Source of the DNA: Mobula hypostoma
Lineage: Eukaryota
Direction of reading: 5' to 3'
Assembly: GCF_963921235.1 (NCBI RefSeq)
Contig: NC_086108.1
Span: 45,138,001 to 45,202,000 of the forward strand
Length of the DNA: 64,000 nt
Position numbers and translations under genes: made by a program. Positions 5,075-52,339 of this stretch are shown in pieces. Positions within the stretch are counted from its first letter, which is position 1. The number at the start of each line of letters is the position of its first letter. The notes beneath the pieces were generated by a model. The model worked only from the letters and a program-made list of their open reading frames with translations. It was not told the origin of the DNA and made no database searches.

Positions 5075-6480
5075 TTATTAACACAAATAGTGCATTTCAG
5101 CCTGCATTTTGATGTACATGTGATAAATCAGCATATGCTAGCTTGCTTGTTAAATGTGTCCACAAAAATCGTGTTCCTTTGGCAATGAAAGTGAGATAGT
5201 CATAACGCTTTGGTCATTGAGACATAACGCCTACTTTTAGAGCTTATATGTTCGTGCTCTCATTCTTGGAAAGGCATTCTGAATGCGAAGTGAGGTAGGA
5301 ATGAATTCACTTTGTTGGAGGACTGTGTTACTGAATACTGTACATCTTTTCACTGATTCAGCTTTGGAAAAGCAATCAGCTATTGGGGCCAATCTGCCTG
5401 AAAACATATGTAACTGACTTGCTTCTCCAACTATCATTCTCAGTGTCTGCAGCAACGTTGATCTAAAATCCTTGTCTATTTCTCCATCACATTAGCGTAA
5501 AATGTGCGATATCTATGTGAGATAACTGATTAAAAATCCAAAGCACAGTATTGTTTTTCTGATAGCTTTAGTTTAACAGTCAACCAGAGAGTTCCCTCAG
5601 TGATGTTTCATGGCCAATTATGGGAGAAATTCCTAAGCAGTTACAACACGAATTTCTCAGGAATTTTATTTAAAACATTAATTGACAACATGATACTATC
5701 ATTATCATAAAATGACAGCAATAAATTTTATTTATTGCAATATTGATTCATGAAACAAATGATTTAAGTCTGCTGAAGCTGCTTATTACACTGTTAAAAA
5801 AATTGATTGTTTCTTTCCCTTTCAAAACGGCTGTAATCATTCTTCTCAAGTTTCCATAAGTTTTTTTCATTCATTCCCCATTTTCTCTCAAAATCCCCAG
5901 ATTGTTGCTGCCCTATTTAAAACCTCTACATTCTGATTTACAACATTGTGAGCCCCCAGGCTCTGGCTCAGACTGAGATAAAAGCTGTTAATTCCACCAA
6001 GATGGTCTTCAGAGTGACTTTGCTATATTGCTGCCTTAGCTCCTATCCCACCACCACTAAAACCCCCACTCACATATCCCATTGCTGCTATCTTCTAACA
6101 TCAAACTGACCTAACCTCTAATTTCTTCAAAACCTATACCCACCCACCGTATCCTGTTGCACTTTCCGAATTCCCATTATAGCCAAATTTTCCCAATACT
6201 TTGGGGAGAATATAAGATAACATTCAGAATAGATTCAATATCAGTGGCGGGCTCTCATAACCTACCTTTCTTGACTATTGGGAGGCTCAAAAGACACAAG
6301 ACATAAGAAATATAAGTAGGTGGCGGCCCTATGGCTACTGTACCTTGTAATATGATGGGTGACATTTTACCTCAGTGCCAGTTTCCTGCACTGAACCCAC
6401 AAGCCATGACTCCCTTATTTAACCATAAGTTTATTGATCTGCCTTAAATGCATGCAAACAATTGAGCACCTACGTCCCAT

Positions 6481-7835
6481 TTCAAAGTTCAAAGTACTGT
6501 ACATATGTGTCACCATATACAGCCCTGAGATTCATTTTCTTGCAGCCTACTCAATGAATCCATAATAGAATAATAACCATCATAGAATCAATGGAAGACT
6601 GCACCAACTGGACAGTCACCAGTGTGCAAAAGATATCAAACTGTGCAAATACAAAAAGAAAGAAATAATAATAATAAATAAGCAATAAATATCGAGAACA
6701 TGAAATGAAGAGTCCTTGAAAGTGAGTCCATGGGTTGTGGGAGCAGTTCAATGATGGGGCAAGTGAAGATGAATGAAGTTTTCTCATTTGGTTCAAGAGC
6801 CTGATGGTTGAGCAGCACTAACCGTCTCTGAAACTGGTGGTGTGAGCCTTGAGGCTCCTGTAACTCGGTCCTGAAGAGAGCGTGAAGAGAGCATGACCTG
6901 CGTGGTAGGGGTTCCTGATGATGGGTGCAGCTTTCCTGCAACAATGTTCTGTGTAGATGTGCTCAGTGGTGGGGAGGGATTTAACTGGGAGGGACTGGGC
7001 CATATTCACTAGTTTTTGTAGGATTTTCCATTCAAGGACATTAGTGTATCCATACCAGGAAATGATGTAACCAGTCAATATACTCTCCACCACACATCTA
7101 TAGAAGTTTGTCATGCTGAATATTCGCAAACTTCTAAGGAAGTAAAGGTGCTGTTGTGCTTTCTTCGTAACTGTACTTGTATGTTGGGTCCAGGACAGGT
7201 CCTCTGAAATGATAACACTGAGGAATTTAAAGTTGCTGACATTCTCCACCTCAGATCCACGACGAGGACTCGCTGATGTTTCCTCCTGAAGTCAATAATC
7301 AACTCCTTTGTTTTACTGATGTTGAGAAAGAGGTTGTTGCTATGACACCACTCAGCTAAATTTGCATCTCTGTCCTATATGCGGATTCATGACCACCTTT
7401 GATTCAGCCTATGACAGTGGTAGCAAACTTGAATATGGCACTGGAGCTGTCCTTAGTCACGCAATCATAAGTGTAAAACAAGTAAATCAGGGGACTATGA
7501 ACACAGCCTTGTGGTGCCCCTGTGCTGATGGATATTGTGGAGGAGATGTTGCTGCCAATCCAAACTGACTGGGTTCTGCGTGAGGAAATCGAGGATCCAC
7601 AAGTATGTATTGAGGCCAATATCTTGAAGCTTATTGATTAGTTTGGAGGGGATGATGGTACTGAATTCTGAGCTGTAGTTGATAAAGAGCATCCTGATGT
7701 ACGCATCTTTGCTGTCCAGAGGTTCCAGGGTTTAGTGAAGAGCCAGTGAAATGACATCGGCTGTGGGCCTGTTTTACAGTAGGCAAATTGGAGCGGATCC
7801 AAATCACTTCTCAGGCAGGAGTTGATCTGTTCACT
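6481..7835 (-). mobile_element. Rex1/Babar-type LINE, 5'-truncated and frameshifted
   Basis: ORFs 7638-7880 (LDPLQFAY), 7495-7692, 7404-7619 ([11 protein letters not shown]), 6818-7249 (KAQQHLYFLR, ESILTG..WYG); ttcaaagttcaaag tail. Confidence 0.9.
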
Positions 7836-8054
7836 TCTTGGGTAGGAGTTGGGCAGAGAATTCCAAGAACTTACTGCCATTTAGCCCTCAAGTATGTGAC
7901 TGCTGTCTTCTTTCTTAGTGGGGCTATCTTTTAATCTAGACTGAATCATTCTAGAGTTTATAGAATTTTCGAAGTTATCAATAATACATCCACTATCTTT
8001 ATTGTCATCTCTTTAATAACACTAGGCTACAGACCATTATGGAAGTTTTGACTA

Positions 8055-8220
8055 ACACACAGAAAAGAGCTGGAGGAATTTAGCAGGTCCATTAGCATCT
8101 ATGGAGAGAAATTAACAGTCGATGTTTTGGGCAGAGACCCTTCATCAGGACCTGCTAAGTTCCTCCAGCATTTTGTGTGTGTTGCTCACATTTTCCAGTA
8201 TCTCCAGAATCTCTTGTGTC
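8055..8220. repeat. Penelope-derived terminal repeat in head-to-head inverted arrangement
   Basis: 8055-8089 is an imperfect inverted repeat of 8149-8182; degenerate hammerhead on the minus strand at 8115-8151. Confidence 0.7.
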
Positions 8221-10859
8221 TTCATTAGGGAATATATTGAGTTTCAATATTATTACCTTCTCCAGAACTGTTCACTAATATAAACTTATTTGTGCTCCCT
8301 AATTGTTCCAAGCATATTGTTCCCCACTATTTATGTGTGATTTTACATCTCTTTTGAAAAGGATACAACATTTTTTCTTCCCTGTATAATTTCTCCTGCA
8401 TTTGCCAACTTCCGTTATTTTTATTTTTATATGTCTGTAGAAGCATTTACTGTTTTCACTCTATATTCTTATTTTTCTTTATCAATTGCTTGGTCCATTT
8501 TTGCAGAAATCTGATATTCTGCAGTGTTCTGCTCTTTTTGGCAACATCCTAAGTCCTTCACTTTGATCCAGTACTACCTTTACACTATTAGCCAATTTAA
8601 TTGAGTTTTGTGCCTGGGGTTGTATATTTGCTGCAAACTATGTATTATTTGTTTCAATGTTAGCTTTCAATTTAATGCATTTCCCAATTTTCCTTAACTA
8701 AAATGTGCCTCATACTTAATGGGTTTGCATTGTTTGGACTTAAAACCCTGGTTTCAAACAGAACTAAATGATTTTCAGTTCTTACATTAAATTCTACCAT
8801 CACATTCCCTTAAGTCTACCTAACCACAAGGTTGTTCATTAACTCTTTCTCATTGCTGAATCCTTGCTGAGTATTTGATCTGAAATAGCCTGGTCCCTTG
8901 CTAGTTCCTCAGTGTGCTGCTCTAGAAAACCATCTGTCATCCATTCTTTGAATTGGCCCTCCATGCTATTATCACTCATTTGGTTAGCCCACTCACTGTG
9001 TAGATTATAGTCACCCACGCTGCTTCTATTACCCTCTTTACATGCGTCCCACTTTTTGGGGTTTAGATAATTCCCACCAGCATTTTCTACCCCTTTCTCT
9101 AACTGAACTCAATCTGACTGATTTTACTTTTTGATTTTCTGAGCTCTAATCCTTCTTTACTGTCCTCGTCTTATTTGTTATTAGCAGACCCACCTCTTCA
9201 TTTTGCCTCATCTCTTCAAAAGGTGTCATAGAATATTTAATTCCCAGTCTTGGTAAATTTGTAGTTGTGTCTTCCCAAAAGATTCAAACAATTATTTCTA
9301 TTTGAGCCATTAATTCTTCTATTTTATTATGAACTATATGTGCTTTCAGATTGTATGTTTCAGTTTTGACCTTTTACCTGCTCTCATATTCATATTCATA
9401 TGTTGTCATGATAGAGGATGTACTTGATTGGCATGTTTTTGGGAAGTGAGAGCACTAGGTAATGCCCAGTATCAGCTTACCAGCCTGGGGAAGAACAAAA
9501 CCGCATAGCTATTGCACTTAAACAACAAGCAGAAAGAAGCAGGTACACTGAAAGATTGATTTGGTAAAACCACACATCAGTAACCAAAAACCATAACTGA
9601 AGGATTAGCATTTTGATCTGGAGAAGGATGACTGTTGTGCATCATTCTCTGATAATGCTGAAGTGGCTGTAAGGAGAAAGGCTGAAGCAGAAGCCGATAT
9701 GTTGTTGTGTTGGTGGAGATGGAGGATTGGAAGTGACATTGAAGATTATTCTTGAGGAACCAATGAATATTGTAATTGAGGAGAAAGTGATCAAGCATAG
9801 ATGCATACATAAATGCATGAAGCATAGCCTTTGTACAATAAAGGATTTGTTTCCATGCTACATAACTCTGTGACTTTACACAGAAGAGAAAAATATCTAT
9901 AAATGCTGAATTTGTGAAATGCAACACTGTAAGAACTTGAGCATCTGCTTTGGAAGTTACCATTGAATGGCGTGGATTTGTTTACATAAAAAGCTTTCTG
10001 TCTGCTCTAGACCATCAGATAACAGATCAACCTGAAAGTTAATTCCAGTGAGCAAGTGAATTTATAAGGTGCATATCATGTTTCACCTATTAGTCGCCTA
10101 ACATGAAATAGGACAGGCAGTTAAAAGCCACACTTACCAAACGTAAATGCTTGATCCTTCATGACCTCCCCTTATTCTAACTTCATCTCTTCTAACTTCA
10201 TACAATATTCTCTCTTCCCTCCATTGCCTCACTCTGAATACTACAACTGATTTGGCCATAGCCCACTTTCAATAAGCCTTCAACCACGTTAACTCCAATT
10301 TTCCTAAAATCCTGCTTTTCTGTCAAGTTATTGCTCACATTCCTAACTCAACAATCATGGCTCACCATCCATTTAAAAAATGTTTATTTAATCTTCCTTC
10401 ACATTGAAAGACAATGGGATGTTAATAACCACTGTGACTTAAATATAGGGCTTGCTGTTGCTGAAGAATGCCTAAATCATGTTGATTTCTCAGAAATACC
10501 AACTATATTTACATGGTGTCTGTATTACAATATGCTTAGACCACAACCGGCTGTTTTGGCAGCGGACTGCTGTTCAGTGTGGTAGAGCTATAAGTTTCAC
10601 GTAATAGATAAAGCAATTAAGGTTAAGCTCTTTCAAACCATTGCGTTCTAAAATCCATCAACACAGGAATGTAAACTGGCAATGCAGCAGAAATGCCAAT
10701 AAACGGTGTTGGTGATGAATAAATTATCAGATGACTATCTTAGCTTCATATTGGTTAAAGTATTATTTACATCATCCAAGAAATTCTTCATGTTTCCTTT
10801 GACTGTAGTGTATCGCCACTTATTTGAGATGTTGTTCTGATGTTGCTTTAAGCTTCATA

Positions 10860-11085
10860 ACATTACTTCACTTTTTTAATATACAGTTTTTCTGTTTATG
10901 CACATTTTTAAAATCTATTCAATTTCTGTAATTGATTTACTTGTTTATTTGTTGTTATGTTTTATTTTATTATTATTTATTTTTTTCTCTCTCTCTGCTA
11001 AATTATGTATCATATTGAACTGCTGCTGCTAAGTTAACAAATTTTATGTCACATGCTGGTGATAATAAACCTGATTCTGATTCCG
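10860..11085 (+). mobile_element. Rex/Babar-type 3'UTR fragment
   Basis: Closely similar to 1829-2052, with the same (tgattc)n tail. Confidence 0.8.
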
Positions 11086-14064
11086 AATATGTGACTCTTC
11101 AAAGAAAAGTCTGACATTGTAATTGCAATCGTGAACTTTAAGAAGGAAGATCCAGCAAAAAAATACCTTTCCTTCTCATTCAGTAGTACTAGGTGGAAAG
11201 TGATTTAGATAATGATGCCTGTAGCTGTGATATCTTCCATAACAGGCCAGCCTGTTGTCAGTCTGGGCTTCCACATGAAAACCAGCCATTTGAGTAAAGT
11301 ATATACTCGTCTTCTTAGAACTCAACCGCAAGTGGCTCAATTTTTTTTTCAGGGGTAGTACAGATCTTGAAGAAGAACTAGGCAAATCAGTAATTTGTGG
11401 CTTAGTGATACACAGTCACATCGTAGAAGACTGCAGTTCGGTGTTAAAACTTAGAGAACTCCACTGTTCTTCTATATTGAGGCCTCACCCAAGGGTTAGA
11501 TCATTTGGAAGGTAGATCATGATGTGATACGGTAAGATGGGAGGAAGATCCTATAGGAAACAAACGAAGAAATAATGGGATCAGTGAGCATGAGAAAGAG
11601 TATAGAGGAATGATTCTTATGCAGCATATCTTTCTGCTTGTACAATTATTTTCAAGGATTTAACAGTTCTAGCGGTGATTACATTCTGCCAAAATAATAA
11701 TTGATTCCTGAAAGATTTGCGTAAAATAGTGGCAGGGTAAATGCTGTAACTTAATAAACCAAATTCATCCTGTGTAACTATGGGCTTGGCAAGAGAAACA
11801 AAAACAAGTGAAACTTTTGTTCATGCGTGTAATAAGTTTAAATTAAACAATATCCTAACAGAAACAATTATGGCAGTGGGCATTGGCTCAGTTACTGCTC
11901 TGGCAGTCGGCAATAAAGCAAAACCACATAATCCAGGAACTCAAGTAAATTGTCAGTCAGAAAATCACTATCAACATATGGCTGGTGGATTTCACATTTT
12001 TATAGAATCCAGGCCAGCAATATGTACAAAATAAATCAAAACCAAGTTATGACCCCATAGACGTTTAATCTTCGTTAATTGACAATGCAGCTTTTGAGCT
12101 TTAAGTTGAATGATTGCTTATGTATTAGTTTGAGTTTTTGCTATATTTATTAGCTTGTTTTATTTGAGTTTGAAAACAAGCCTTTCGGCTTCCCACAGAT
12201 ATTAACATTATAGTATAAATTCTGACTCCAAGAAGAAACACGATGGGACTCCCCAAAAGAGAAATGCACTGCTTTTGTTCGCCAAAACAGTAGGTTACAA
12301 GTTAGACTGAGGAAGTTGGGATCACACTGTAGAGTGATCTGTTCACATTGTGCTTTAAACACCACGTATGTTCTGGCCACTGAGACACCAGGGAGACTGC
12401 TAGGCATTGGAGGCATTGCAGAGAAGAGTCAGCCGCACTCAACCTCAACATGAGAGATGTTATGTTATATTCAAATACTCAAAAAGCAAGTTCTTCAACC
12501 TTTGAAGGAAATGCCAAATGTTCATGTAATTTAGATAATTAACAATATAGGGAAAGTGAATCTGAAAATTTGCTTCAATGATAATTGCATAAACAAAAAT
12601 AAGCATATTTAATCAGCTGATTCTTTTTGAATGTAATTGATTGGAAAGAAGAGTGCTAATGAGAATAGAGTTAGGGGAATTATTTGTGTGTTAGTGATGA
12701 CCATGTATCATTTCAATCTTTAAGTGTACTGCTGACTTGAATTATTTTGCTAGTCATCATCACTTGGTCTAAAACACGTTTGCTTTTGGAAAGCTTTAAA
12801 CGAAGTAAATATTTATTTGCCGAAAAGATTTGTCATTCCTAGGAGAAAGGAGTTGTGAATTATAAGAAATATAGTCTGTTTCTACATGAAAACCCAAGTA
12901 TTTTTCCAATAAACCTGAGTGTTTCATTTCAGTTTTCCATGAAGTTATGAAATTCAGCATATTGAAATATGCAGCAAATAATATAAAAATTCAACAGTTC
13001 CTACAGGAATTGCCTGCGAGTAGAAAATAAATGCTATGCATTAACTTTACTATTTTCCTTTGATTGTTGTCCAATTACCAATTTATTTTTCAGCATGTTG
13101 GTTATTCCTCGATCTATTCTTCTCACATGTCTCAGGTTTATATTATATTATTTGAGTAATCTGTTTTTTGGAAGATATTGATTAGCCTTTGCTTGTTTCC
13201 CTTGTAGTCATACACTTTTATTCCACATTGTATATTTTTGTTAAGTTGACTCTGGATCCCACATGACATATAAACTCTCTCCAGATGGAACATTACAGGG
13301 ATCTGGGCTGATTTTGCCTCCTTAATCTTGGGGTGTCTTCAGAGATTGAATTTCTTTTCCAATGTAATGTAAACAGGGATAGAAACTAGGTGAAAAGTTG
13401 TTGAGTTACAAGACTTCAACCATTAAAGATATATTTTCGTCATTGAAGATTACTATGCATCATTGATAACAAACCATATTTTTTGGAAATCTCCTTAAAA
13501 AAAGTGACCACAACCCTCCCTAACAGGATAGAAAATTCCTAGATCTTTTTTAAGTGTTTGTGTCTCTGTGTGGCTTGAATCACAATATTTTGAAATAAGA
13601 TTCTGTTTTGAAATAATCTATGACAAATTTATTTTAATCAACTATTATGCTGAAGTTACTTGTAGTGCATAAACCTTTTGGAAACCTGAAGTGTAAATCT
13701 GGCCATCCAGGGATGAACCATGCTTGCTGGGAAGAATCAGCTGTGCTCAACACCGGTCTTAAGGGAACTTGCTTTAACTAGAAGATTGAATTTAATTGTG
13801 TTGTGTCAATATTGCACAAATTCTGAAGAATTTTAAAATTCCTTGAAGTCTTCTTATGGTGATGTAGGCCAAGGAGACCTATCTTCCTTCTTAATTCCAA
13901 TCACTTAACTCCTTAGGCCTTCAGTTTTAGGCCTGATTTGAAACCATTTCTTTCCTGTTAACAGTTTAGCTTGAGCTATAGCAGAATGTCCAAACTGCTT
14001 GCTGCTGGGAACCTTGGCTGAGCACAGGTCCAAAACCACCTTCAAACTTGCCAAAGGTACACAC

Positions 14065-14924
14065 TGTTGGACAAATCACAGGTGGTGAGGAGATAGATCA
14101 TGTGGTTGAGTGGTGCCACAAAAACAACCTCTTGCTCAATATCAGTAAAACTAAAGGTTTAATTGTTGACTTCAGGTAAGGGAAGGAGGGCAAACATATG
14201 CTAGTCTACATGGGGGATTGGCAGTGGAGAGGGTTAGCAGCTTTAAATTTCTGGAGTTAACATACCAGATGACCTGTCTTGGGGCTACTCCATAGATGTC
14301 ATCATAAGGAAAGCACACCAGCAACTTTATTTAGGAGTTTAAGGAAGTTTGGCTTGTCATTGAATACTAACAAAACTTCTACAGATCTACTGTTAGAAGT
14401 ATCTTAACTGCGCATCATGGTCTGGTATAGCAATCTGAATATTAGAACCTGCAGAGAGTAATGGACACCACCCAACACATCATGTGCACATCCCTCCCCA
14501 CCATTGGTAGTATCTACAGGAGGCCCTGCTTCAAGAAGGTAGCATCTGTAATCCAAGATCCTCACCATTCAGACCATGTTGTCTTTTTGCAACTAATATC
14601 GGGCAGGAGGTACAGAGGCCTGAAGTTCAACATCACCTGATTCAAGAACAGTTACTTCTCCTCAATCATTTTGTTTGTGAACTAACTGAGAAAATCCTAA
14701 TCACTACAGTTTAGCAGCACTATGAACAAATTGCACTAAATTAGAATTCTTCTGGTTCTTATTGAGTTTTCTTGTAAAGATTGTTTATAATTTGTCTAAT
14801 TTATAGTTGTCTTATGAATTTTGCTGATATCATGCTCTGTGCTGTGTTGCTGTTGCAAGTTTATCATTGCTCCTGTGCATACATGTACTTGTGCATGTGA
14901 CAATAAGCTTAACTTTGACTTTGA
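14065..14924 (+). mobile_element. Degenerate Rex1/Babar LINE 3' part
   Basis: WC..NNL.LN.SKTK.LIVDFR-like coding remnant; aataagcttaactttgactttga tail. Confidence 0.8.
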
Positions 14925-15761
14925 AGGCTGCTCAACTTCGTACAAATCCAACCCAAGTAAAATAGTTCCTCATAAAGGGAAAGACAGAAGCCAAGACCAC
15001 TCTTTCCCTTTGTTATTAGTATGTCTGTATGAAGAAACTATGGCTAATAGGTTCTGCATATTTCTGTTTCCTTATTTATTGGAACTGAATTATCCTTGAA
15101 ACTGAATTATCCTTGAAACTACTTGTGGAAAGGAATGTATTGTTGCTAGAACTTGAGCTTATATTTGGCTGACTTTCCTTGTTTCTTCTCCCCATTCCAT
15201 TTTAATAGGTGCTTAGTCCATGTGCCTCCTCATTCCCAAATCCCCTGCTCTCCACATGACCTGCCCAATAACTTTATTTTCTGTTGGTTTTGGACTACTT
15301 TCCAAATGTTGGCAGTGGATTACCTCACACGAGGCACACATGCTGCAGGGCAAACTATCTCCCAGTGTAACTCAGAGGAGATGGAGAGTGCGACCAGAAA
15401 GGTAGCCCTGACCTGTCCAAGCATTGGGGGTAACTTGTGTAGAAGTCCACCATCCTATATCATACATATTAGAAATTGACCGTAGTGTTGATAGACAAGT
15501 GGAATACTCAAAATGTGGCAATAAAATATATTATGGTTCTCCGTTTTACTCTCCCTTCTCTCTTTCCCATCCCAAACTAACCCCTTCTTTCGAAGACTCA
15601 GACTTTAACTTCGATGGAGGCAGATGAAGCCATAGAACATGGCCTTTGGCAATGGCAGCATGAGGAATTGGGTCATTTATCATACATGCCTAGTTTAAAT
15701 ATTCCATCACTGTCTGCTAGCCAGAACTGACACAGTTGACATCAGGACTAGCAGGCAATAT

Positions 15762-15857
15762 GAGTCCTGATGAAGGATCTCGGCCTGAAACGTCGACTGT
15801 GACTCCTAGAGATGCTGCCTGGCCTGCTGCGTTCACCAGCAACTTTGATGTGTGTTG
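15762..15857 (+). repeat. Penelope-derived terminal repeat
   Basis: gtcctgatgaagg..gaaacgtcgactg..gatgctgcctggcctgctgcgttcaccagcaac; same family as the copy attached to a GIY-YIG-like remnant at 47646-48052. Confidence 0.75.
15763..15798 (+). ncRNA. Minimal type-I hammerhead ribozyme motif
   Basis: Helix I agtc/gact; CTGATGA 15767-15773; helix II agg/cct; GAAA 15787-15790; palindromic ACGT helix III; GTC cleavage triplet 15792-15794. Confidence 0.7.
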
Positions 15858-16124
15858 GGACCACAAAGTACATAAAATTTGTTTGTTGCGCCAAAAATAA
15901 GAGCAAAAATAGGGAAGCAAAATAATATCAATGCATTGCTTTTGGAGCCTGCATTACTGTTCCTGAAGTCGATGCTCATAATCAGTTCACTTCCTAAATT
16001 GAGGGAAATTATGGATACTGTATGTATATTCGGGCTGAGCAAAGCTGGCGAGTTTATGATGTCCCATAAAATCACTGCAGTTCTTGCTTCCCGCACCATG
16101 AAGGGCAGGAGAATGAAAACAAGA

Positions 16125-16220
16125 AAGACGCAGCAGACTGTAGGAGCTGGAATCTGGAGGAAAGTATAGACACTGGAAGAAGTCGGTGGGTTAAGCAGCA
16201 TCTGTGGAAGCAAACAGTAT
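16125..16220 (-). repeat. Degenerate Penelope-derived terminal repeat
   Basis: ctgtaggagctggaatctggag..ctggaagaagtc..gcagcatctgtgga resembles 53575-53655. Confidence 0.5.
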
Positions 16221-16629
16221 ATGGCATTCGGTTAAGAGAGGGCAGGACTTTTTTGACCACCTCACAGTATATTTTCAGTATTCTGATTTTAATTTTATTT
16301 CTGATTTTATGCATCTGCACTATTTTGATTTTATACTTTGTGTTATGAGGCATGAAACATTCCCAAGTCACCCTGATCTCAGTGATTAATGGAGCAGGCC
16401 AGGTGTAGGTTGGATACAGAATGAAAGCCTTTCATATCTCCTCAAAAAATAGTCTTTGATTCAGAGATTCAGAATAACGTACAAACTGGATCACCTTTGT
16501 AGCAGTTGTAACATAATAAGTAAAATGCTTTAGTTTATGAAGATGTGATATAATTCATTGCCACTCGTGCATTGAAGCTCAGCATTTCCTTAATATTCAA
16601 GTGATCAATTATGTAAATAACAGGTGTCA

Positions 16630-17175
16630 CCTCGGTGTTCAGGTCCAGTTCCAGAGACTTGACTACAAAAATCTAACCTGACCTTCCAGGGTAACACCAC
16701 AGGAATACGGCGCAGAAGCAACCTTTGTCTGTGGTTTAACAATATCTAGATATTAAGAAAACCAAGGGGTAATGACGGAAAGTGACGCTGCAGTAAATGA
16801 TCTGCTGTAATTTTGCTGAAAGGTGAAACAGGCAAGAAGAGATGAATAGCTACAACTTCTATTTTTTTATGTTCTTCAGCCAAAGCGAATTGGTTTTCGC
16901 AAATCGGTGTCAAAGATTCTTTGGCCTTATTTTGAAGGAGACGAATGGCTTTATTCCTAGTAGCTTGGCAATTATTTATAAATCAATAAATATTAAAGGA
17001 ACAGAATACATGCTCAATTTTACAGTACTATATGTGGAACTTGTTGTTTACAAATTGCCTGCCATGTTTCCTACATTAGGATTGTGGCTATGCTTCAAAA
17101 GTACTTGGTTCACTCCAAAGCATTTTGGGATTTCCTCAATGGGATGTGAGAAGTGCAACATAAATAGGAATCTTT
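16630..17175 (+). mobile_element. Ancient SacSINE1/DeuSINE-like SINE remnant (head 16630-16730, tail 17030-17175)
   Basis: gttcaggtccagttccagagacttgac head; caaattgcctgccatgtttcctacatta..cttcaaaagtactt tail. Confidence 0.55.
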
Positions 17176-18029
17176 TCAGTGGATAATTTCTGCCCATTTA
17201 CAGCCCATGGAAGACTGAAAAAGCTAGGATTTAGTGTGTTTCTCTCCATGGTGATCTCACACGAAAAGATTAAAAGGTTGGGCTATCCCAGCTTCAGAGA
17301 GCAAGTGGAATGTCTCCAATGAACAAGATCGGTTATTTTCCTGAAGATACCCCACCAACATTATTGAAATTCGGAGCTCGCCATGTGGGGGGGAACTGCG
17401 AACTCAGACACAATGTATATGGTATGTTCCCAAGGTGGGCCTCCAGGAAGATAAGGTTTGGGATTTTAGATCTTGGCTTATTAATAATGTTGCTTTAAAG
17501 TAATTGGCAGTAAATGCATTTAAGCAATTCCATGGAGCATTGAAACCTAAATAAGGTGGGGTAAAAATGGAAAAAGAATAAAAGCTTCGGAATGAAAAGT
17601 TTCAGAACCCTTGTGTTTAATTCCCAATGAGCTGACCTATTGTTTCAAATATGTTTGAGTTCTGAATTGAATTGTTTTATTTGGCCGGGGCAAGTTTTGG
17701 AAAGTTTATTTATTATCCATTCTGATATCAAATGACAAAGCAGCGACTTTGTATCTCTGACAGCTGTGTCAACTTTCACAAAATCAAAGGGATTTTTTAA
17801 CATGGAGTTTAGCATTAAGGAAATTATGTTATGAAAGAAGTCTTAGGTGTGAGTAATGCTTTAGAGTAAATCCAAGCGCAACAAGGTGGCCAAAGACATG
17901 ATCAAATAGGGATGACTCCAAGCATGGGAGAGAAAACAATGAATAGGAAATTTCCGGATAGGCTTCAGAGTGCTGGCCTGTGTTGGTAAAAATTCTATCA
18001 CAGATGAAAAGAATTATAATTATGTAGGA

Positions 18030-18250
18030 TCATTCACATCCATTCCAAAGTATCTTACAGTTAGTTATGTACTTCTGAAATGTATACATTGATGCAAAAT
18101 AGCAAACAAAACATATTGTTGGTGTCACCATGAGCTTTTATTTGTGTTCTTAATGATAGGTAAGATGGAGTCACTTGTCAATTGTCGGGTCACTGAGACA
18201 TATCACAGTGACCCTGCTCCTTTTCAATACAGTGCCATGGGAGCTACTTT
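18030..18250 (-). mobile_element. SacSINE1/DeuSINE-like fragment
   Basis: ccaaagtatcttacag..gtacttctgaaatgta and ctgctccttttcaatacagtgccatggga motifs. Confidence 0.45.
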
Positions 18251-18625
18251 TGTCAATCTTACATTTTTGTTACAATTTTCATGTTAGAAACAGTGAAAGA
18301 AGACTGCCACTGCCAACTAAACCCAAGTGCAAGTGCTTTACAAACGACTCTTAACCCATCTTTGAGTAGTACGAATGTTACTTCAGTCTGTTGAGAAATA
18401 TCTAAAAAGTAAGCCTTCCAATATTGTGCAGGCTTTCCAGTGGAATTGAAGTATAAATGCAAAAGAAATCTGCATTAACAGCTCCAAATTACCAGGACTT
18501 TCCAGGTCCTGGCCAGGCACTGGTGTTTGTCAATATCTTTGAGAGTGATGAGCATCAGTGTTCTCTGATTGTAGTCGGTTTGTGGTAAACCAGAGGTTTT
18601 AGACCTCATCACAAAATTACCCATA

Positions 18626-19500
18626 CAAGTTTCCCCTGTTATCCGAAAGTAAAGCGTTCCTATGAAACCGTTCGTAAGCCGAAATGGCATAAAGCAAAGA
18701 AGCAATTACCATTAATTTATATAGGAAAAATTTATGAGTGTTCCCAGACCCAAAAAATAACCTACCAAATCATACCAAATGACACATAAAACCTAAAATA
18801 ACACTAACATATAGTAAAAGCAGGAATGATATGGTAAATACATAGCCTATCCTTCGAAACCTTGCGTCCCTTAGCCTGCTTTTCTTCTACTGAAATAAAT
18901 GTCTTGCTCAGCAATTTTTTCCAATAAATTGCAGCGTCGTCATGGTTAAACACTTGCTTATACTAATATCTACCTTCTGTAATTACTTTCTTCAGTTCTT
19001 CTGGGAATTTTTCGGCAGCTTCAGTATCAGCCAAAGCACTCCCTCCAGTAATGCACGCACAATGTCTTTATTTCGTTCACCACGATCAAAACGCTTAATT
19101 ACATCCAGTTTTATGCTAAGCGTAACACCCTTACGAGCTCTCTTAGGCTTTTCTGATACCTTAGGACACATCTTGCTAACGGATGCACAAAATAAATCGA
19201 GATAAAGCACAGATGCTCACAGACACAGTTCAAAGCTATGGCGGCTTGATGCTGAGATGCTGAGTGTAGTTCCTGGGGAAGGCGCTTGGCGGCGCCACTC
19301 TCGCTGCTCGGGGTGCGCGCTGCCTCTGTAACGGCTCGTTGCAAAACAAACACTGAACGCTATTTTCGCTTTTCGCCTTTTTTCGTAAAAGTGAAAATCC
19401 TCTTCGGATTTCTTTCGGTTAGCGAAAACGGGTACTAACGTAGGTCTTTCGTAAAAACGAAGTGGCGTAAAGCGAACTTTCGAAAAGCGGGGGATACCTG
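18626..19500 (-). mobile_element. Tigger/pogo-type DNA transposon, internally deleted
   Basis: TA on both flanks; imperfect TIRs caagtttcccctgttatccgaaagt / actttcgaaaagcgggggatacctg; ORF 18992-19210 KRARKGVTLSIKLDVIKRFDRGERNKDIVRAL resembles a CENP-B-type N-terminal HTH. Confidence 0.88.
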
Positions 19501-20900
19501 TACTTCAATTTCCATCTCTAAAGCCTAACTTGTTTCAAACTCTAGGGTTTGTTTTCTCTATTATTAGGCCTTCCTTTCCCTCCGTGTAATTTTCTGATAT
19601 TGCAACGTGGGCAACTTTTAAGTGCTCAGACTAAGAATGATGTCCAGCAGGGCATCACTTTTTTTTTTCTTCCATATTCCTCCTTTTTCATTTTAAAACA
19701 TTTGAGGATGGTGAGGACAGTAAGGGGAATAACCAATAAATTGTAGGATACTGAGAGTTATGAAGAAACAGAGATACTTTATGGTGCATGGACACCAACA
19801 TGTCAATTACTATTGGGGATTGCATCATTCTGCATTTTGCTGCTTGCCACAAATCTAACAATTTTTTTAAATGTCATAATCTTTATAAACAAATTCAACC
19901 TTTCCTGTTAATAATCATCCCAGCAGGGATCTTTCCTGTTGAAGTACAGGATTTATCCGTAATGACTTGACAGCTGGCTAAGCCATACCCTGACTTAGCT
20001 GACTACCAAAGACTAGCAAAATCTGCTGCTGCAGGTGGTGAATGGGAGATTGTAGAGGGAAAAGGCAGCAGGAGTGAATAGGTGTGAAAAAGGAGAAAGT
20101 GGGAGATTAATGACAGGGCTGCTGTGGTCCATGGAGCTCAGCATCTACAGGGAGATCACTCTTAAATGTTTTTACTTACATTTCACCACCTCTTCCTGAC
20201 TTTAGCTGTTCATTGAGCCTTCCGCTTTTAACCACTGCATACCTATCCTCTCGACCTTAGAAATCGCCATGCTCCTTGCCTCAAAAGCTCATCCAGCCAC
20301 CACTCCCATAACTCAGGCTTCATTCACTTGTAGCCACCAATCCTTTTGTAGTCACCTGTTCAATTTTTGCTGCAGTGGTGAAACTAGAAAAGGAGAGGAT
20401 TTTGTGCACATTTACTCATGATGGGTCTTAAGACCATAGACTCATACAGCACTGAAATGCCTAATGTGCCATGGAAACCATCAAGCACTCATCTACACTT
20501 ATTCCATTTGCATCACCAGCCCACTGCATCCACTGTCACCTGCTTTGCATTGAAGAACTTACAGTAGCCTACTTACCTAGCAACAGAGTGCCTTTAGCAT
20601 AAGTGTGGAACCAATATAGTTGCAGGAAAAATGTGCAAAGTCCATGTAAGCTAGGGCAAGTTGCAAAGGTGAAAGCACAAATAAGTGTTGGTCTTCCACT
20701 CCTTGTTGCCTAATATGCCCTTTGTGGTGTCGAACAATTTCGAAGCCTGTAGAATAGGTTTAAGTTAGGCTTCAGCTGTGTGGCATACTTTCCAGTGCGT
20801 TCCATTCTTGCACCATTCCTCTGCTCCATGCTGTTGATAGTTTACCGAGGCTCATACATGAAACACCAAAGCAACACTCTCAGTCAACAATGACTTTGGG

Positions 20901-21110
20901 AATAGACAATAGACAATAGGTGCAGGAGTAGGCCATTCGGCCCTTCGAGCCAGCACCGCCATTCACTGTGATCATGGCTGATCATCCACAATCAGTACCC
21001 CGTTCCTGCCTTCTCCCCATATCCCTTGACTCCTCTATCATTAAGAACTCTATCTAACTCTTTCTTGAAAGTATCCAGAGAATTGGCCTCCACTGCCTTC
21101 TGAGGCAGAG
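20901..21110 (-). mobile_element. CR1 3' end, apparently young
   Basis: (aatagac)n tail plus gtgcaggagtaggccattcggcccttcgagcc; CpGs retained. Confidence 0.8.
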
Positions 21111-21111
21111 C

Positions 21112-21870
21112 TGAGGCTGAGGAAGGGGAAGGAGGGTGAATATACACCACTTACACTGAGGGATCAGCAGTGGATGGAGTTAGCAGTTTTTAAATTGCTG
21201 AGCATGAATGTATTAGATGTTCTGTCTTGAGCCCAGCACATAGATGCGATCATAAGCAATGCACGCCAGCATCTTTACTTCAATAGGAGGTTCATTTTTG
21301 CACTGAATACGCCAACAAACCTACAGATGCACTGCTGAAAGGAATCTGACTGGATGGATCATGATCTGGCACAACAATTTGAATGCACAGGAATGTAAGA
21401 AGCTGGAGGGAGTAGTGGAGCCAGCCCAAAACATCATCGGCACATCCTCCCCTCCACTGGTAATACCTGCAGGAGGTGCTGTCTCAGGAGGGCAATCTAT
21501 CATCAGAGATTCCCACTGTCCAAACCATGCTATCTTTTGGCAACTATTGTTGGCAGGAGGTACAGAAGCATGAAATCTCACACCACCTGGTTCAAAACCA
21601 ACTATTTTCCTTCAACCATTTGGTTCTTGAACCAACTGACAAAACCCTGACCACTATAGTTTAGCAATACTGTGACCACTCTGTCAACTTTGCACTAACA
21701 TGGATGTTTTTGTTCTAATTGTTAAAGTTTGTGTACAGTTTATGTTTAGTTTTATGTTTTTCTTGTGAATTCTCCTTGTGTGATGCCTTGTGCCCGAGGT
21801 GCCACTGCAAGTAAGTTTTTCCATTGCATACGTGTACTTGTGCATGTGACAATAAACTCAACTTCCACTT
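21112..21870 (+). mobile_element. Rex1/Babar LINE 3' fragment
   Basis: ORF 21361-21573 (WHNNLNAQECKKL..AQNIIGTS); 3'UTR similar to that of 14065-14924. Confidence 0.8.
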
Positions 21871-22699
21871 GGAAGCATAACGGCTCAGATGAGGATACAG
21901 GGAGAGATGTTGGTGCTGATATTATTATATTGCTACATAAATCAGGAGATGTAGACATGTATGATGGTTGAAAGGCTAGGGTTTGGTGGGGAATGATTCA
22001 GATTTGATGAAGGGGAGGGGATATTATTGGAAAGAAAAGAAAGCTGATTTCAGAACTAATATTGTGCAACCATCTGTGGAGAAGCAGTAGTCACTTTTTG
22101 AGTTTAAAGTTCATGGTCTTTTTAGAAAGTGCGCTGAAAATCTTTTATCCAGCCAACTGAGATTAAAACATGCAATACATGAGCAAATGAAATTCAAGAC
22201 ACGTAAGCCCACATTAGTCAGACAAGGATAATTAAGTATGCATCTCAAGAAATAGTTTCGTAATGTAAATCTTTAGGGATTAAGAAACTGATTTTGGAAA
22301 GTCTTATGACTCCACAGGGTTTTGATAGAACTTTCTCTTTTTTCACAACTTGTTCTTTTGGAACTCTGGTGGTTGTGAGCCACTTACAAACAAAGAAGTT
22401 CTGTTTTTTTTTGTTGTTCTGTTATGTTTGGCCAAGCAGACAGAACTGAGGCGTTTGAACACAGTTCAAGCAACTGACAATCCTGGAACCCTTATCTAGG
22501 GCAGGCTTCTCACTGAACATTTTTGAAGAGCTCAGGTAAAGGATGTGGGGCAATTGAAACAACTACAGAGAAGGCCAGAGAAAAGCTGAAGTATTGCCAC
22601 AGAGGTCAGGTTTAAAAACTTCTGGATTGCAAGAAAAAAGAAAATCTAGATTAGCTTAAATCGATCAGAATTCCTTTGTATAATCCTCTCTTATGACTT

Positions 22700-22940
22700 C
22701 AGAATATCATCAAAGATTAAATAACTAATTAAATACAGTTAATGCATAGTCACACTCACACTTGGAACAAAGGGCAACATGGTGGACAGTTGTGCACAGC
22801 AAGGACAACATGCAACAATGGGAATAAATAACTGGATGGTCTGCTTTAAATTACATTGGTTGAGGGATGAACATTGATCAGGATCATAGGGAGAACTGCT
22901 CTGTTTTCCTATGATGGTATTGGATCATTAATGTGTGCAT
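22700..22940 (-). mobile_element. SacSINE1/DeuSINE-like fragment
   Basis: ttgtgcacagcaag..ttggttgagggatgaacattgatcagga..gggagaact. Confidence 0.45.
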
Positions 22941-23239
22941 GAAATTGCATTAATTAACTTCCTGACTGTATGATTTTCCTGAGTTTTGAGGTGCACGTAA
23001 AAGTGGGCTGATTGCAATGGAAAAGGAGAAGCTCTGAGAGGCCGTTCTGACCTTTTCTGTCCATTCTACTCGAGCCTCAATTTTTCCATGAGCAAACACT
23101 TGTAAATATGTGATTAAGACATCAGCTTGTAAAAACAGTAATGAAATGAAAATCTGTTGAAAATGAAAATGTAATTTAAAATGAAGGTAGTTTTTTTATT
23201 TTTTAGTGTTTATTGTTTTAGTATTTTTTAGTGTTTAGT

Positions 23240-23933
23240 GACGGCGGGAGGAGAAGATGGCGGCGCGACGCAGCTCGCAGTGGCCACTCCGGTGGTGATG
23301 TCTGTTATTTGTCAAGTAGGGTGCCGTGCACAATCCTGATTTGATGGAGACGGACGTGAGAGCACGGAGGAACATCTGGTGAAACTTCTGAAATGCCTGC
23401 TTTGCTGCTGCTGATGCTACTGTGTGGTCCAGAATCAACGGAGGGGAAGGCCCCCCAGTCCTCGGCTTTGCTTGTTGCTTGGTGGCCGGGGCGGGGTTGA
23501 AGCACTCGGCAGAGGATGGTGCTCGGAGAGGCTGTATCGGAGGGGCTGGTCAGAAGCTTGAAGTTTTCGGACGGACTCAGAGTCCGCTGCGGTCGGGTGC
23601 TTCCAATGGTGGTGCATCGGCAAGTTTGCGGCGCTTGGAGGTTCATGGCAGAGAGAGTTTCTCTCTTCTACCGTCTGTGTGAGATGATGAGGCTATTGGG
23701 ACTTCGAGACTTTTTTTTACCGTGCCCATGGTCTGCTCTTTATCAAATTATGGTATTGCTTTGCACTGTTGTAACTATATGTTATAATTATGTGGTTTTG
23801 TCAGTTTTAGTCTTGGTTTGTCCTGTGTTTTCTGGTGATATCATTCTGGAGGAATGTTGTATCATTTTTTAATGCATGCATTTCTAAATGACAATAAACG
23901 AGGACTGAGTGTCCTTATAATCTAATGTAATCT
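23240..23933 (+). mobile_element. CpG-rich non-autonomous retroposon-like element
   Basis: 5' aagatggcggcg (YY1-like); GC/CpG-rich body without a recognisable ORF; 3' gacaataaa, aggac/gtcct hairpin and (taatc)n-like tail. Confidence 0.65.
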
Positions 23934-24350: not shown

Positions 24351-27300
24351 AGATTCAGATTCTTTTACTTATCACAGTTACATCAAAGTATATAGTGAAA
24401 TGCATTGTTTGCATTAACAACCAACACAACCTGAGGATGAACAATAGCCAGACAGCAGTCGGGAATGTGAAAAGACATAGCTCACTCAGGCATCGACCTA
24501 CAGCAGTTTGGTGTTTGAACAGTAGCAAAGTAGTGATTGGGATTGATTGGCAAGAACAAATTTTTTTTTTTAAAAGGCAAGGACAAGCGGAGCAGCCATT
24601 GTTGGAGTGGACAGTGTTGGAGTGTTTTTTTGAGACTTTAGCTCTTCATGGCTTCAGTGAGGAGAAGCTTGCATGATAGAAGGTGAAAAAGATTTTTTTT
24701 TGGGAGGCTGAAGGGGTGATAGATAGGACATAAAAAGGTGCAAGGTACAGGAAAATGAGTGACGGTCAGGAAGGGAAAAGGGGTTAAGGAGCCAGTGCAA
24801 AGTACCTCTGTGGCCGTCTCCCTTAACAAGTATACCACTCTGGATAGCGCTGGGGGGGGGGGGTGGAGGGAAGATGACCTAGATGGTCAGGTCTGCCTCT
24901 GTGACTCAGAAGGGAAAGGGGAAGAAGCATGCTGTGGTGATAGGGGATTTGTTAGTTAGGGGACTGGACAGGAGGTTCTGTGGGCAAGAATGAGATTCCA
25001 GGGAGGTATGTTGCCTCTTGGGTGCCAGGGTCTGGGATATCTTGGATTGAGTTTTTAGCGTTCTTAAGTGGAAGTGTGAGCAGACTGTGCAGGTACCAGT
25101 GACATAGGTAGGAAGAATGATGAGGTTCTGCAAATTGAGTTCAGGGTGCTGGGTGTTAAGTTAAAGGATAGAACCTCCAGGGTTGTGATCTCAGGATTGC
25201 TACCCGAGCCATGTGCTAGTGAGGCCGGAAGTAGGAAGATCACACAGTTTTAACACTTGTCTAAGGAGTTGTGTAGAAGGGAGGGTGTCAGATTTTTGGA
25301 TTATTAGGGTTATTTTCCAGGGAAGGTGAGACGTGTACAGAAGGGACAGTTTGCACCTGAACTGGAGTGGACTAGCTAGAAGGGTTATTAGTGCTGCACA
25401 GTGAGTGGGGTTGGGGGGTGTTTAAACTAAAGTTGTAAGGGAATGGGAACTAGAGTGCCAGAACAGATAGTGGAGATGTTATGGAGACATGTTGTTAAGA
25501 CCTCAGACAAAGTCAGGAATCAATAGGTCGAATATGGTGGGACTCATGTTCTGAGTTGTGTATATTTCAATGCAAGAAGTATTGTAGGAAAGGCGAAGAG
25601 CTCAGGGCATGGATCAACACATGGAATGATGATTTTGCAACCATTAGTAGGACTTGGTTGCAGGAGGGGCAAGACTGTCAGCTCAATATTAGATGAAACA
25701 ATGCAAAAGGGATTAAAGTGGAAAGGGTGGCATTACTAGTTTGGGAAAATGTCATGGCAATGCTCCATCAGGACAGACTGGAGAGCTCGTCTAGTGAGGC
25801 TTTATGGGTGAAACTGAGGAATAAGAAAGGTATGACCATGTCAATGAGGTTATACTATAGACCACCCAATAATCCACGGGATTTAGAGGAGCGAATTTGT
25901 AGAGAGATTGCAGACTGTTGCAAGAAACATAAAGTTGTTATTGTAGGTGATTTCAACTTTCCATATATTGACTTGGACTACCATACTGTTAAAGGACTCG
26001 ATGGAATAGAGTATGTCAAAAGTGTTCAGGAAAGTTTCCTTAATCAATATGTTGAAGTCCCAATGAGAGAGTGTGCAATACTTGATCTCTTATTACTGAA
26101 TGAGACAGGGCAGGTGACAGAAGTTTGTGTAGAGTAACATTTTGCATCTAGTGATCATAATTAATTTCAAAGTAAATATGGAAAAAGATAAGTCTGCTCC
26201 ATGAGTTGAGATACTAAATTGGAGAAAGGCGTGTGGATTTGGATAGACTGTTTTCAGACAAAGTTGTATTTGGTAAGTGGAAGCCCTTCAAAAGTGAAAT
26301 TTTGAGAGTAAAAAGCTTATATGTGCCTGTCAGAATAATGGGTAAAGATAATAGATGTAGGGAACCTTGGTTTTCAAGAGTTATTGAGGCCCTGGTTAAG
26401 AAACAGAAGACTGTGCTTAGCAGGTATAGGCAGGTAGGAACAATTGAGGTACTTATGGAGTATAAGAAATGCAAAAGAACACTTAAGAAAGAAATCAGTG
26501 GGCTAAAAGAAGGCATGAGGTTGCCCTAGCACACAAGGTGAAGGAGAATCCTGAGGGAGTCTACAGATATGTTAAGTAAAAAAGGACTGTAAGGAAGAAA
26601 GTTGGTCCTCTGGAATGTCAGAATGGTAATCTATGCGTGGAGCCAGAAGAAATAGGGGAGATTTTAAATAGATTTTTTGCATCTGTATTTACTTGAGAGA
26701 TGGACACAGAGTCTGTAAAAGTGAGACAAAGCAGCAGTGACATCATGGACCATATACAGATTATAGAAGAAGAGGTGTTCGCTGTCTTGAGGCAAATTAG
26801 GGTGGATAAATCCCCAGAGCCTCACAAGGTGTTTCCTCAGACTCTGTGGGAGGCAAGTGCAGAAATTGTGGGGGTCCTAGCAGAGTTATTTAAATCATCC
26901 TTAGTGACAGCTGAGGTACCAGGGGGTTGCAGGATAGATAATGTTTTTCTATTGTTTAAGAAAAACTCTAAGAATAAGCCAGGAAATTATAGGCTGGTGA
27001 GCCTGACACCAGTAGTGGGAAGGTTATTGGAAGGCATTCTAAGGGACCAGATATATGAGTATTCGGATAGACACGGACTGGTTAGGGATAGTCATAGTCA
27101 TCATGGCTTTGTGTGTGGTAGGTCATGTCTAACCAACTTTATAGAGGTTTTCAAGGAAGTTGCCAGGAAAGGTGTTAAAGGCAAGGCATTGGATGCTGAC
27201 TACATGGACTATAGCAATGCATTTGACAAGGTCCCACATGGGAGGTTGGTCAAGAAGGTTCAGTTGCTCGGCATTCAAGACGAGGTAGTAAAGTGGATCA

Positions 27301-28800
27301 GACATTGGCTTTGTGGAAGAAGCCAGACAGTGGTAGTTGATGGTTGCCTTTCTGACTGTAACTAGTAGAGCACCGCAGGGATTGGAGCTGGGTCCGTTGT
27401 TGGTTGTTATCAATATCAATGATCTGGATGATAATGTGGTTAGCAGGATTAGCAAATTTGTGGATGACACCAAGGTTAGGGGTGTAGTGGACAGCAAGGA
27501 AGACTATTAGAGCTTGCAGCGGGATCTGGACCAGCTGGAAAAATGGGCCTGAAAAAAGGCAGATGGAAGTTAATGCTGATAAGCGCGATGTGTTACAATT
27601 TGGTAGGACTAACCAGGGTAGGTTTTGCATAGTGAATGGCAGGGCACTGAGAAATGTGGTAGAACAAAGGGATCTGGGAATACAGGTCCATAATTCATTG
27701 AAAGTGGCATTACAGGTAGATAGGGTCATAAAGCTTTTGACACATTGGCCTTCATAAATCATAAGACATTGCTGAAGCCTAATCCTAATTTGGATGTGTG
27801 CAGTTTTGGTCACCTACCTACAGGAAAGATGTAAATATGGTTGAAAGAATGCATAGAAAAGTCACAAGGATGTTGCTGGGAGTGGATGACCTGAGTTATG
27901 AGGAAAGATTGAATGGGTTAGAACTTTGTTTCTTGAAATGTAAAAGACTGAGGGAAGATTTGATAGAGGTATACAAAATTATGAAGAGTGTTGATAGCGT
28001 AAGTGCAAGCAGGCTTTTTCCACTAAGGTTGGATGGGACTACAACTGGAGGACAAGGGTTCAGGAGGTGAAATGTTTAAGGGGAACATGAGGGGAAACTT
28101 CTTCACTCAGATGGTCATGAGAATGTAGGATGATCTGCCAATGTAAGTGGTGCATTTGAGCTCGATTTCAACATTTTAGAGAAGTTTGGGTAGGTACATG
28201 AATGGTCTGGAGGGCTATGGTCCAGATGCAGGTCAATGGGACTAGGTAGTTTAAATAGCTCTGCATGAACTAGATGGGCTCCTGTTTCAGTGCTGTACTT
28301 TTCTATGGCTTTATGTGCTGAGGGCAGCTTGCAAGTGCTGATACACGTTCCAGCACCAACATAACATACCTACAATGCTTCGCAGAATAACATAGAGTAC
28401 ACAAAAGAGAACATAACAAATAAAACAAAAACAGCAAAACAAACTTCATTTCTCTCTCCCACCCACACACATACAGTCTTCCAACCCCAGGGCAAGCCGT
28501 CTTCTGCCTCCAGTAGACTTCACAGATATTTGGCTTCAACTTCCCCAGTGGACTTGCAGATCCAGGTTTTCTGGAGTTTCGATTGACCTTTGGGCTTCTG
28601 TCTTCTCCAGGACTTTCTGATGATGACCAATAAGGACCCTAGATGCAAACACTAGGCTCGAATTCCAGACTCCCCACTGACAGGATCTCGGACACCCAGC
28701 CTCGAATTCCAGACTCACCAATGACAGAACCCTGGACACTTGGCCTCGAACCGTGCTCTCGCCAACTTGTGTCCTTGGGGGAGACCCCAGCCCTCATCCT
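24351..28800 (-). mobile_element. Retroposon with a Rex-like tail, split by a CR1 (pieces 24351-24439 and 28314-28800)
   Basis: gattcagattc tail; caacacaacctgaggatg|tgctgagggcagc joins when the CR1 is removed. Confidence 0.6.
24440..28313 (+). mobile_element. Near full-length, inactivated CR1 LINE (ORF1 esterase plus ORF2 APE-RT)
   Basis: ORF1 remnant 24759-24959; APE 25718-26137 (YYRPP, VGDFNFP, ILDL); RT 26700-27365 (KPGNYR.VSLT, SCLTN, AFDKVPH); C-terminus 27798-28070; ctatgg-like tail. Confidence 0.93.
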
Positions 28801-30716: not shown

Positions 30717-30728
30717 GCTTAGAGATGT

Positions 30729-32022
30729 GTGGACCAGCTAGCAGAGATTCTCACTGACATTTTCAGCATCTCCCTGAGCATCGCCGTTGTTCCTACGTGC
30801 TTCAAGGCTGCCACCATTGTCCCTGTGCCGAAGAAGTCTTCAGTGTTCTGCCTCAACGACTGTCGTCCCATTGCTGTCACATCCATCATCATGAAATGTT
30901 TCGAAAGGCTCGTCATGAGGCACATCAAGACCCTGCTGCCCCCCTCACTGAACCCCCTGCAGTTCGTGTACTGTCCCAACCGTTCAACAGACAATGCCAT
31001 TGCCATCACCCTCCACCTGGCCCTAACCCACCTGGACAAAAAAGACACGTATGTTCGAATGCTGTTCATAGACTTCAGTTCAGCATTCAACACAATCATT
31101 CCTCAGAGACTGATTGGAAAGCTGAGCCTATTGGGCCTGAATACCTCCCTCTGCAACTGGATCCTAGACTTCCTGAGTGGGAGACCTCAGTCAGTCAGGA
31201 TTGGAAGCAGCATCTCCAACACCATCACACTGAGCACGGGGGACCCCCCAGGACTGTGTGCTCAGTCCACTGCTGTTCACTCTGCTGACCCACGACTGTG
31301 CTGCAACACACAGCTCGAACCACATCATCAAGTTCGCCGATGACACGATCGTGGTGGGTCTTATCAGCAAGAGCGATGAGTCAGCATACAGAGAAGAGGT
31401 GCAGCGGCTAATGTACTGGTGCAGAGCCAAGAACCTGTCTCTGAATGTGAACAAAACAAAAGAGATGGTTGTTGACTTCAGGAGGACATGGAGCGACCAC
31501 TCTCTGCTGAACATCGACAACTCCTCCATAGAGATCGTTAACAGCACCAAATTTCTTGGTGTTCACCTGGCGGAGAATCTCACCTGGTCCCTCAACACCA
31601 GCTCCATAGCAAAGAAAGCCCAGCAGCGTCTCTACTTTCTGCGAAGGCTGGGAAAAGTCCATCTCCCACCCCCCATCCTCACCACATTCTACAGAGGTTG
31701 TAGTGAGAGCATCCTGAGCAGCTGCATCACTGCCTGGTTTGGAAATTGCACCATCTCGGATCGCAAGACCCTGCAGCAGATAGTGAGGTCAGCTGAGAAG
31801 ATCATCGGGGTCTCTCTTCCCGCCATTACAGACATTTACGCCACATGCTGCAGCCATAAAGCAAGCAGCATTATGAAGGTCCCCACGCACCCCTCATACA
31901 AGCTCTTCTCCCTCTTGCCGTCTGGCAAAAGGCACCAAAGCATTTGGGGTCTCATGGCCAGACTATGTAACAGTTTCTTCCTCCAAGCCATCAGACTCCT
32001 CAATACCCAGAGCCTGGACTGA
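30729..32022 (+). pseudogene. Rex/Babar reverse transcriptase, frameshifted near 31240-31255
   Basis: Two overlapping ORFs of 204 and 254 aa that join at the GxPQG motif. Confidence 0.88.
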
Positions 32023-52190: not shown

Positions 52191-52339
52191 TAATTCATAC
52201 CAGGCAGAGGCCTTAAATAAAAAACAGGGGTCTCAATTAATGAAGGAGAAAACAGAAACACGTGAGATGGCCAAAAAAAGGCAGAATAAATAAGAAAAAA
52301 AGAGCACATAAACTAAGGTTGAAAGATTGAAATAAATAA

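Follow-up and report, generated by a model that had tools for sequence, protein, structure and literature searches.

The 95 bases at 15763–15857 (+ strand) of the window, by which we mean the whole 64-kb stretch of DNA analysed here, very probably correspond to an insertion from a Penelope-like element, produced as a by-product of truncated reverse transcription, in which a hammerhead motif is carried as a likely inactive and decaying passenger. The limits of the inserted copy were defined from contig depth, empty sites and BLAST. The copy is short at both ends, with neither the upstream pyrimidine tract nor the tail found in its family, and BLAST and the contigs indicated that a few bases have been deleted near 15800–15803. 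The motif is of a kind known since 2014, when minimal hammerheads were described at the ends of Penelope elements and in thousands of scattered solo copies.

Positions 15480–16080 were compared with DNA contigs from four related organisms (B, C, E and H; one run each, 4 of the 24 runs listed). In C, as in E, one contig passes from 15759 to 15851 through just 4 other letters, and a contig of H passes from 15759 to 15860 through 13; the site is thus empty in three of the four organisms. The flanks of these organisms differ from the window at 27/507 positions (5.3%) in C, 48/507 (9.5%) in E and 66/498 (13.3%) in H. Organism B was the closest of the four (11/553, 2.0%), and its contigs extend from the left flank as far as 15785 and from the right flank back to 15831, with no empty joint among the joints listed. 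The site is filled in B, as read from these flank-anchored contigs, none of which spans the whole insertion. These joints are most simply read as a single insertion in the ancestor shared with B, once the lineage of C had diverged, the order of the splits being taken from flank divergence alone. The insertion is young and limited to this lineage. In organisms C and E, the orthologous left flank is about 15–16 bases longer. Summed contig depth was 4–5 orders of magnitude above that of the flanks only in bins 15753–15857, and 5,936–23,535 contigs were placed per run, nearly all of them on the element, a figure that is not a copy number; the repeat family is very abundant.

The empty-site joints also revealed that the 7-base stretch with which the copy ends, TGTGTTG (15851–15857, + strand), is present in the pre-insertion site too, and it is carried by family copies as well. 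No target-site duplication was seen at 15763–15857 when the empty and filled sites were compared. The empty sites bear directly on the proposal that the motif is a domesticated intronic ribozyme regulating a host gene, like the conserved examples described in amniotes (PMC6155905). The intact core is the only feature pointing this way, and, with the orthologous site empty in three of four organisms, helix II changed and no host gene among the 578 reading frames scanned, we consider domestication extremely unlikely; a conserved hammerhead of the amniote type was rejected on the empty sites.

The motif itself is a minimal type-I hammerhead of 36 bases (15763–15798, + strand), recognised from its sequence, from a descriptor and from the layout of the consensus in Fig. 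S3 of PMC4209133. The helix I strands are AGUC (15763–66) and GACU (15795–98), the core boxes are CUGAUGA (15767–73) and GAAA (15787–90), all on the + strand, and the cut region consists of CG followed by U15793 and C15794, with a predicted cut after C15794. The letters, coordinates, core, GUC triplet and ACGU palindrome (A15790–U15793, + strand) proved to be as the earlier note had written them. All 12 of the 12 scored core positions are present, and the minimal Penelope-type core (CUGANGA, GAAA, UH) was found at 15767–73, 15787–90 and 15793–94. There is no helix III stem, the palindromic positions 15.2–16.2 being the ACGU at 15790–93. Both strands of the 64 kb were scanned with a descriptor requiring the two core boxes, the UH site, helix I and helix II, and 15763–15798 was the sole match, even with the helices relaxed. 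The same descriptor gave 0.027 matches per shuffle in 300 dinucleotide shuffles, and 0.003 when a palindromic helix III was added, a result that, with the sequence, bears out the reading of the motif as a minimal type-I hammerhead whose palindromic helix III does not close. Rfam yielded no match in the whole window at the gathering score and, at E ≤ 10 over 15600–16000, six weak matches with no hammerhead family among them. A hammerhead motif devoid of helix III may fall outside the Rfam covariance models. The stability of the 36-mer was unremarkable (z = −1.15).

The region of helix II (15774–15786, + strand) is decayed, as judged from the window copies, the consensus of paralogous contigs and folding. 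The earlier note had drawn this helix with AGG (15774–76) and CCU (15784–86, both on the + strand) closing a loop at 15777–83. Both strands are present, but they were drawn in a slipped register, and the AGG/CCU stem rests on a changed base, existing only because there is a T at 15786. In the family register, the stem begins at G15775, leaving A15774 unpaired after A9. Position 15777 is A in this copy versus G in 6/7 window copies, and position 15786, a CpG site, is T in this copy versus C in 4/7, T being common to the other 3/7; T15786 may thus reflect CpG decay or a minor family variant. The consensus of the paralogous contigs with loose ends in organisms B and C has G at 15777 and C at 15786 among the differences listed. 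In the 15763 copy, G15775 faces U15786 and A15777 faces C15784, and the conserved G10.1–C11.1 pair is lost. This pair is highly conserved, and one unpaired base after A9 belongs to the consensus (PMC4209133). The same unpaired base followed by G10.1–C11.1 is the majority state in the family, with G-C in 4/8 and G-U in 2/8 aligned rows. Judged by its letters, the 15763 copy is a degenerate member of the minimal Penelope hammerheads.

The motif alone was predicted to pair 15764–68 with 15774–78, hiding C3 and U4, and the predicted probability of helix II was about 0.001 for the motif alone and 0.001–0.10 with flanks (up to 400 bases of context), with a model that ignores tertiary contacts, Mg2+ and protein. 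Helix I, which has four Watson-Crick pairs on paper, had an intramolecular pairing probability of 0.001–0.002. Changing position 15777 to G in silico gave a probability of 0.73 for helix II in the family register. The strand-swapped double hammerhead was placed 14.3 kcal/mol above the best two-strand fold for the 15763 copy and 15.8 kcal/mol above it for a majority-like version, so the energy model disfavours the double hammerhead there too, and the size of the gap is thus no guide to whether a copy is live or dead. The lone 15763 copy is predicted to misfold. Thirteen bases upstream of the insertion, 15740–49 is an exact reverse complement of the insertion's first 10 bases, and no second such match was found anywhere in the window; it may have been left by an older copy in inverted orientation. 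Its involvement as a cause of misfolding was rejected, since the predicted pairing was only 0.01–0.12.

It is improbable, on our assessment, that the copy is still a weak working ribozyme, pairing in trans with another family copy or folded by a protein and cutting after C15794. Nothing has been lost from its core, its palindrome or helix I, and a helix II of three pairs can still be drawn, but this helix has decayed and is predicted to be unformed. Potential partners are abundant genome-wide (5,936–23,535 contigs per run), yet no other copy in the 64 kb is positive with the descriptor; the other copy with a full core (56171) lies 40 kb away and has neither an intact palindrome nor the helix I pair adjacent to the cut, and the nearest copy on the same strand is 32 kb away and lacks G12. 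Protein-assisted cleavage is known for a vertebrate Penelope hammerhead, but that hammerhead, from an anole, was active only with the first 172 bases of the ORF present (PMC11167929), and the 15763 copy is devoid of its parent's downstream region. Furthermore, engineered dimers of minimal hammerheads were cleaved poorly (PMC4209133), and none of the eight family copies starts at the cut site.

The integrity of the core does not in itself argue for selection. The insertion is young, and an intact core is therefore expected without selection, with a probability of about 0.7–0.9: at 1–2.7% divergence from the source, the probability that a 12-base core is left untouched by chance is 0.89–0.72. 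In the comparison of core and flank conservation raised by the earlier note, made here among the window copies, the core varied less than downstream sites (5/71 vs 47/307), but the difference was not significant (Fisher p = 0.08), the count omitting the one copy that has no hammerhead part and, for three others, the 5' halves that they lack, and the downstream figure being inflated by subfamily differences. In an analysis of stem covariation over eight window rows, which include non-homologous flank, 83% of the cells were paired and the score was reached by 194/500 shuffles.

BLAST identified eight copies of the family in the window, and these were aligned with each other. The longest (47647–48041, + strand) consists of an 18-codon remnant, a pyrimidine-rich tract and then a hammerhead without G12. 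The copy at 8054–8151 (− strand), in which G12 is changed to A, lies head to head with an inverted arm at 8151–8217 (+ strand), this arm being 5'-truncated and the sole bearer of a tail in the unit. The closest copy (53566–53690, − strand; 89.8% over 88 bases) has a tail and lacks the 5' half of the core. The 5' core is also missing from 52338–52466 (+ strand), which has a tail and changes at G12 and C17, and from 54062–54148 (+ strand), a decayed copy without a tail. The only other copy with a full core, at 56168–56235 (+ strand), fails the descriptor and has a broken palindrome and a broken helix I pair adjoining the cleavage site, and 60248–60322 (+ strand) is a 3' piece with a tail and no hammerhead part. 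The tail, of about 35 bases, is present in four arms and absent from four, one of the latter ending a few bases into it. Among the seven aligned copies, G12 is lost in 3/7 and the ACGU palindrome in 4/7, largely at CpG sites. Three of the eight copies start, to within one base, where helix I has its 5' strand (15763, 8151 and 56168), three inside the core near 15772–73, one far upstream and one downstream, the cut site itself accounting for 0/8 starts. A U-rich tract upstream of the hammerhead is present in the family. An old, heavily decayed related copy, with its hammerhead part destroyed, lies about 270 bases downstream of the insertion (16127–16250, − strand).

The repeat is likely to be the truncated end of a Penelope-like retrotransposon. 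The inverted, 5'-truncated arm typical of Penelope was found in 8054–8151 (−) with 8151–8217 (+), and the optional tail at one end only was found in the same unit. Both features have been described for Penelope-like elements (PMC8557442, Fig. 2 legend), and the tail has been explained by two internal start sites of reverse transcription (PMC11167929). The copy at 47647–48041 extends about 300 bases further upstream, through the pyrimidine tract, into 18 codons at 47647–47700. We take this remnant to resemble the end of a Penelope GIY-YIG endonuclease (C-terminal motif). With fewer than 20 informative residues, it is a query for which a blank weighs little: none of 14 protein candidates matched it at E ≤ 10, and 0 matches were found among 1.84 billion protein representatives and 0 among Pfam families. 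Its matches against Atlas were weak and unnamed (0.77–0.78), and terms for the endonuclease motif are absent from the supplement file of PMC8557442. No Penelope RT or GIY-YIG domain was detected in the window. The build of the DNA is stronger evidence for the Penelope link than the 18-codon remnant, and the description of the repeat as Penelope-derived holds for its build in the window but is without a database match for the protein link. A 20-base family pattern was found at one viral and 27 metagenome contig loci, and all 28 were rejected as chance matches with unrelated flanks.

Six of the eight copies are 70–130 bases long and start within the motif, as might be expected if the repeat were a short non-autonomous element (SINE-like or a solo retrozyme) mobilised in trans. 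The lack of any detected Penelope RT or GIY-YIG domain in the window would fit such an element, as would the retrozymes reported from one cartilaginous fish and derived from Penelope ends (bioRxiv 10.64898/2026.07.22.740005). However, the starts and ends differ between copies, no copy lies in a tandem array, one extends upstream for about 300 bases into the remnant of an ORF end, and the inverted arm and optional tail are Penelope signatures. We therefore regard this origin as very unlikely. The family shares with non-LTR retrozymes a type-I hammerhead, a non-coding repeat and a Penelope link (PMC7229834; bioRxiv 10.64898/2026.07.22.740005), and the hammerheads of animal retrozymes are dimer-dependent in amphibians (same sources). 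In contrast to retrozymes, which are tandem units with mostly canonical hammerheads, the family copies are dispersed, minimal, not in tandem and variably truncated (PMC7229834). A tandem non-LTR retrozyme was rejected, since 0 of the 12 tandem-repeat rows in the window overlap a family copy.

The pseudo-LTRs of Penelope-like elements in metazoans contain minimal hammerheads (min-HHR), which were found by Cervera and De la Pena (2014) and proposed to act as dimers; the single minimal motif gave no cleavage and dimers low cleavage (PMC4209133). By its layout, the motif described here belongs to this class, as a degenerate copy. It shares with min-HHR the CUGANGA box followed by one unpaired base, the GAAA box, the CG palindrome and the UC cut site, together with a short helix I, a U-rich upstream tract and an occurrence mostly as dispersed single copies of truncated elements (PMC4209133). 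The CG layout in the 15790–93 region is as in the fugu, cichlid and lamprey rows of Fig. S3 of that paper. Unlike min-HHR, the family has a helix II of 3–4 pairs, versus 5–8 in most of the examples listed, and the 15763 copy has G-U in place of G10.1–C11.1 (PMC4209133). No cartilaginous fish was seen among the vertebrate rows examined in Fig. S3 or in supplement file 2 of PMC4209133, and a full-text literature search (Penelope, shark, ribozyme) found no paper on this repeat family.

A second point of comparison is the Poseidon element PAc of Anolis carolinensis, the hammerhead of which cuts only with protein (Frangieh et al. 2024, PMC11167929). Insertion did not require this hammerhead in vitro, and its site did not coincide with the end of any RNA-seq read (PMC11167929). 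In both families the hammerhead is close to the end of the element, and both have two 3' end points, an optional tail of 30–40 bases and 5'-truncated copies (PMC11167929). In contrast, PAc primed in vitro at non-homologous DNA (PMC11167929), whereas the junction at 15851–57 shares 7 bases with its target, and, unlike PAc, the family has no full ORF in the window, where no complete element was present.

In the preferred reading, that of a by-product of truncated reverse transcription, the protein of the parent element would have nicked the target site and started reverse transcription at the internal start point of the RNA that gives the short, tail-less form, perhaps aided by the 7-base identity with the target. 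Copying would have ended some 95 bases later, where the 5' strand of helix I lies. The insertion would postdate the separation from C and predate that from B, and the copy would since have decayed neutrally, with CpG sites prominent among the changes. In a full element, the motif may fold as a strand-swapped dimer, two ACGU palindromes forming a shared helix III in tandem transcripts, according to the model of PMC4209133; alternatively, the protein of the element may fold the motif. In either case, the cut would be after C17. The lone 15763 copy would have neither a dimer partner nor the element's protein. The locus adds a dated insertion with its empty site, showing no duplication, a 7-base identity at the 3' end and a 5' end that coincides with the border of helix I, and such junctions, collected genome-wide, could be used to test how Penelope elements prime and stop copying.

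No second copy was positive with the descriptor in the 64 kb. Pfam scans covered 578 frames in all, comprising 280 frames of at least 62 residues (excluding starts in 61700–62600) and 298 frames of 42–61 residues outside masked repeat regions. No host gene was found among these 578 frames with Pfam, which returned only mobile-element domains (RT, endonuclease, esterase, the ALKBH8_N model on RT frames and a weak CENP-B_N) and four weak matches below threshold. As no host gene was identified, the intronic setting is putative, and likely cleavage at C15794 by pairing with a second copy in such a transcript was not supported: the insertion is young and its intact core needs no selection, helix II is decayed, and neither an intact partner nor a host gene was identified in the window. 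A bolder proposal, in which the dispersed copies constitute a genome-wide pool of half-ribozymes, host transcripts pairing through ACGU and cutting each other in trans, perhaps folded by a protein, is a long shot. If true, such trans cleavage of host RNA would be the first in vivo role for the minimal Penelope hammerheads.

The scan for splice signals gave nine candidate rows. The strongest acceptor/donor pair was at 62473–62534 (+ strand; 62 bases, one open frame), directly 3' of a 570-base CT-rich tandem array (61858–62429). An exon-like stretch follows a pyrimidine-rich AG at 16860–16960, and no protein homologue was found for it; the sequence after it, at about 16960–17190, is presumably a SINE tail.

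The window also contains broken LINE copies with Pfam matches to RT, endonuclease or esterase (GDSL) domains, at 56299–60158 (−), 25697–28067 (+) and 39688–40928 (−), and we take these three to be of the CR1 type. A second LINE family has RT matches at 30723–32019 (+), with Pfam ALKBH8_N matches both there and at 6821–7291 (−). Finally, a weak match to the CENP-B N-terminal domain, below the cut-off (E = 0.0012), was found at 18995–19216 (−), possibly corresponding to the remnant of a Tigger/pogo transposase.
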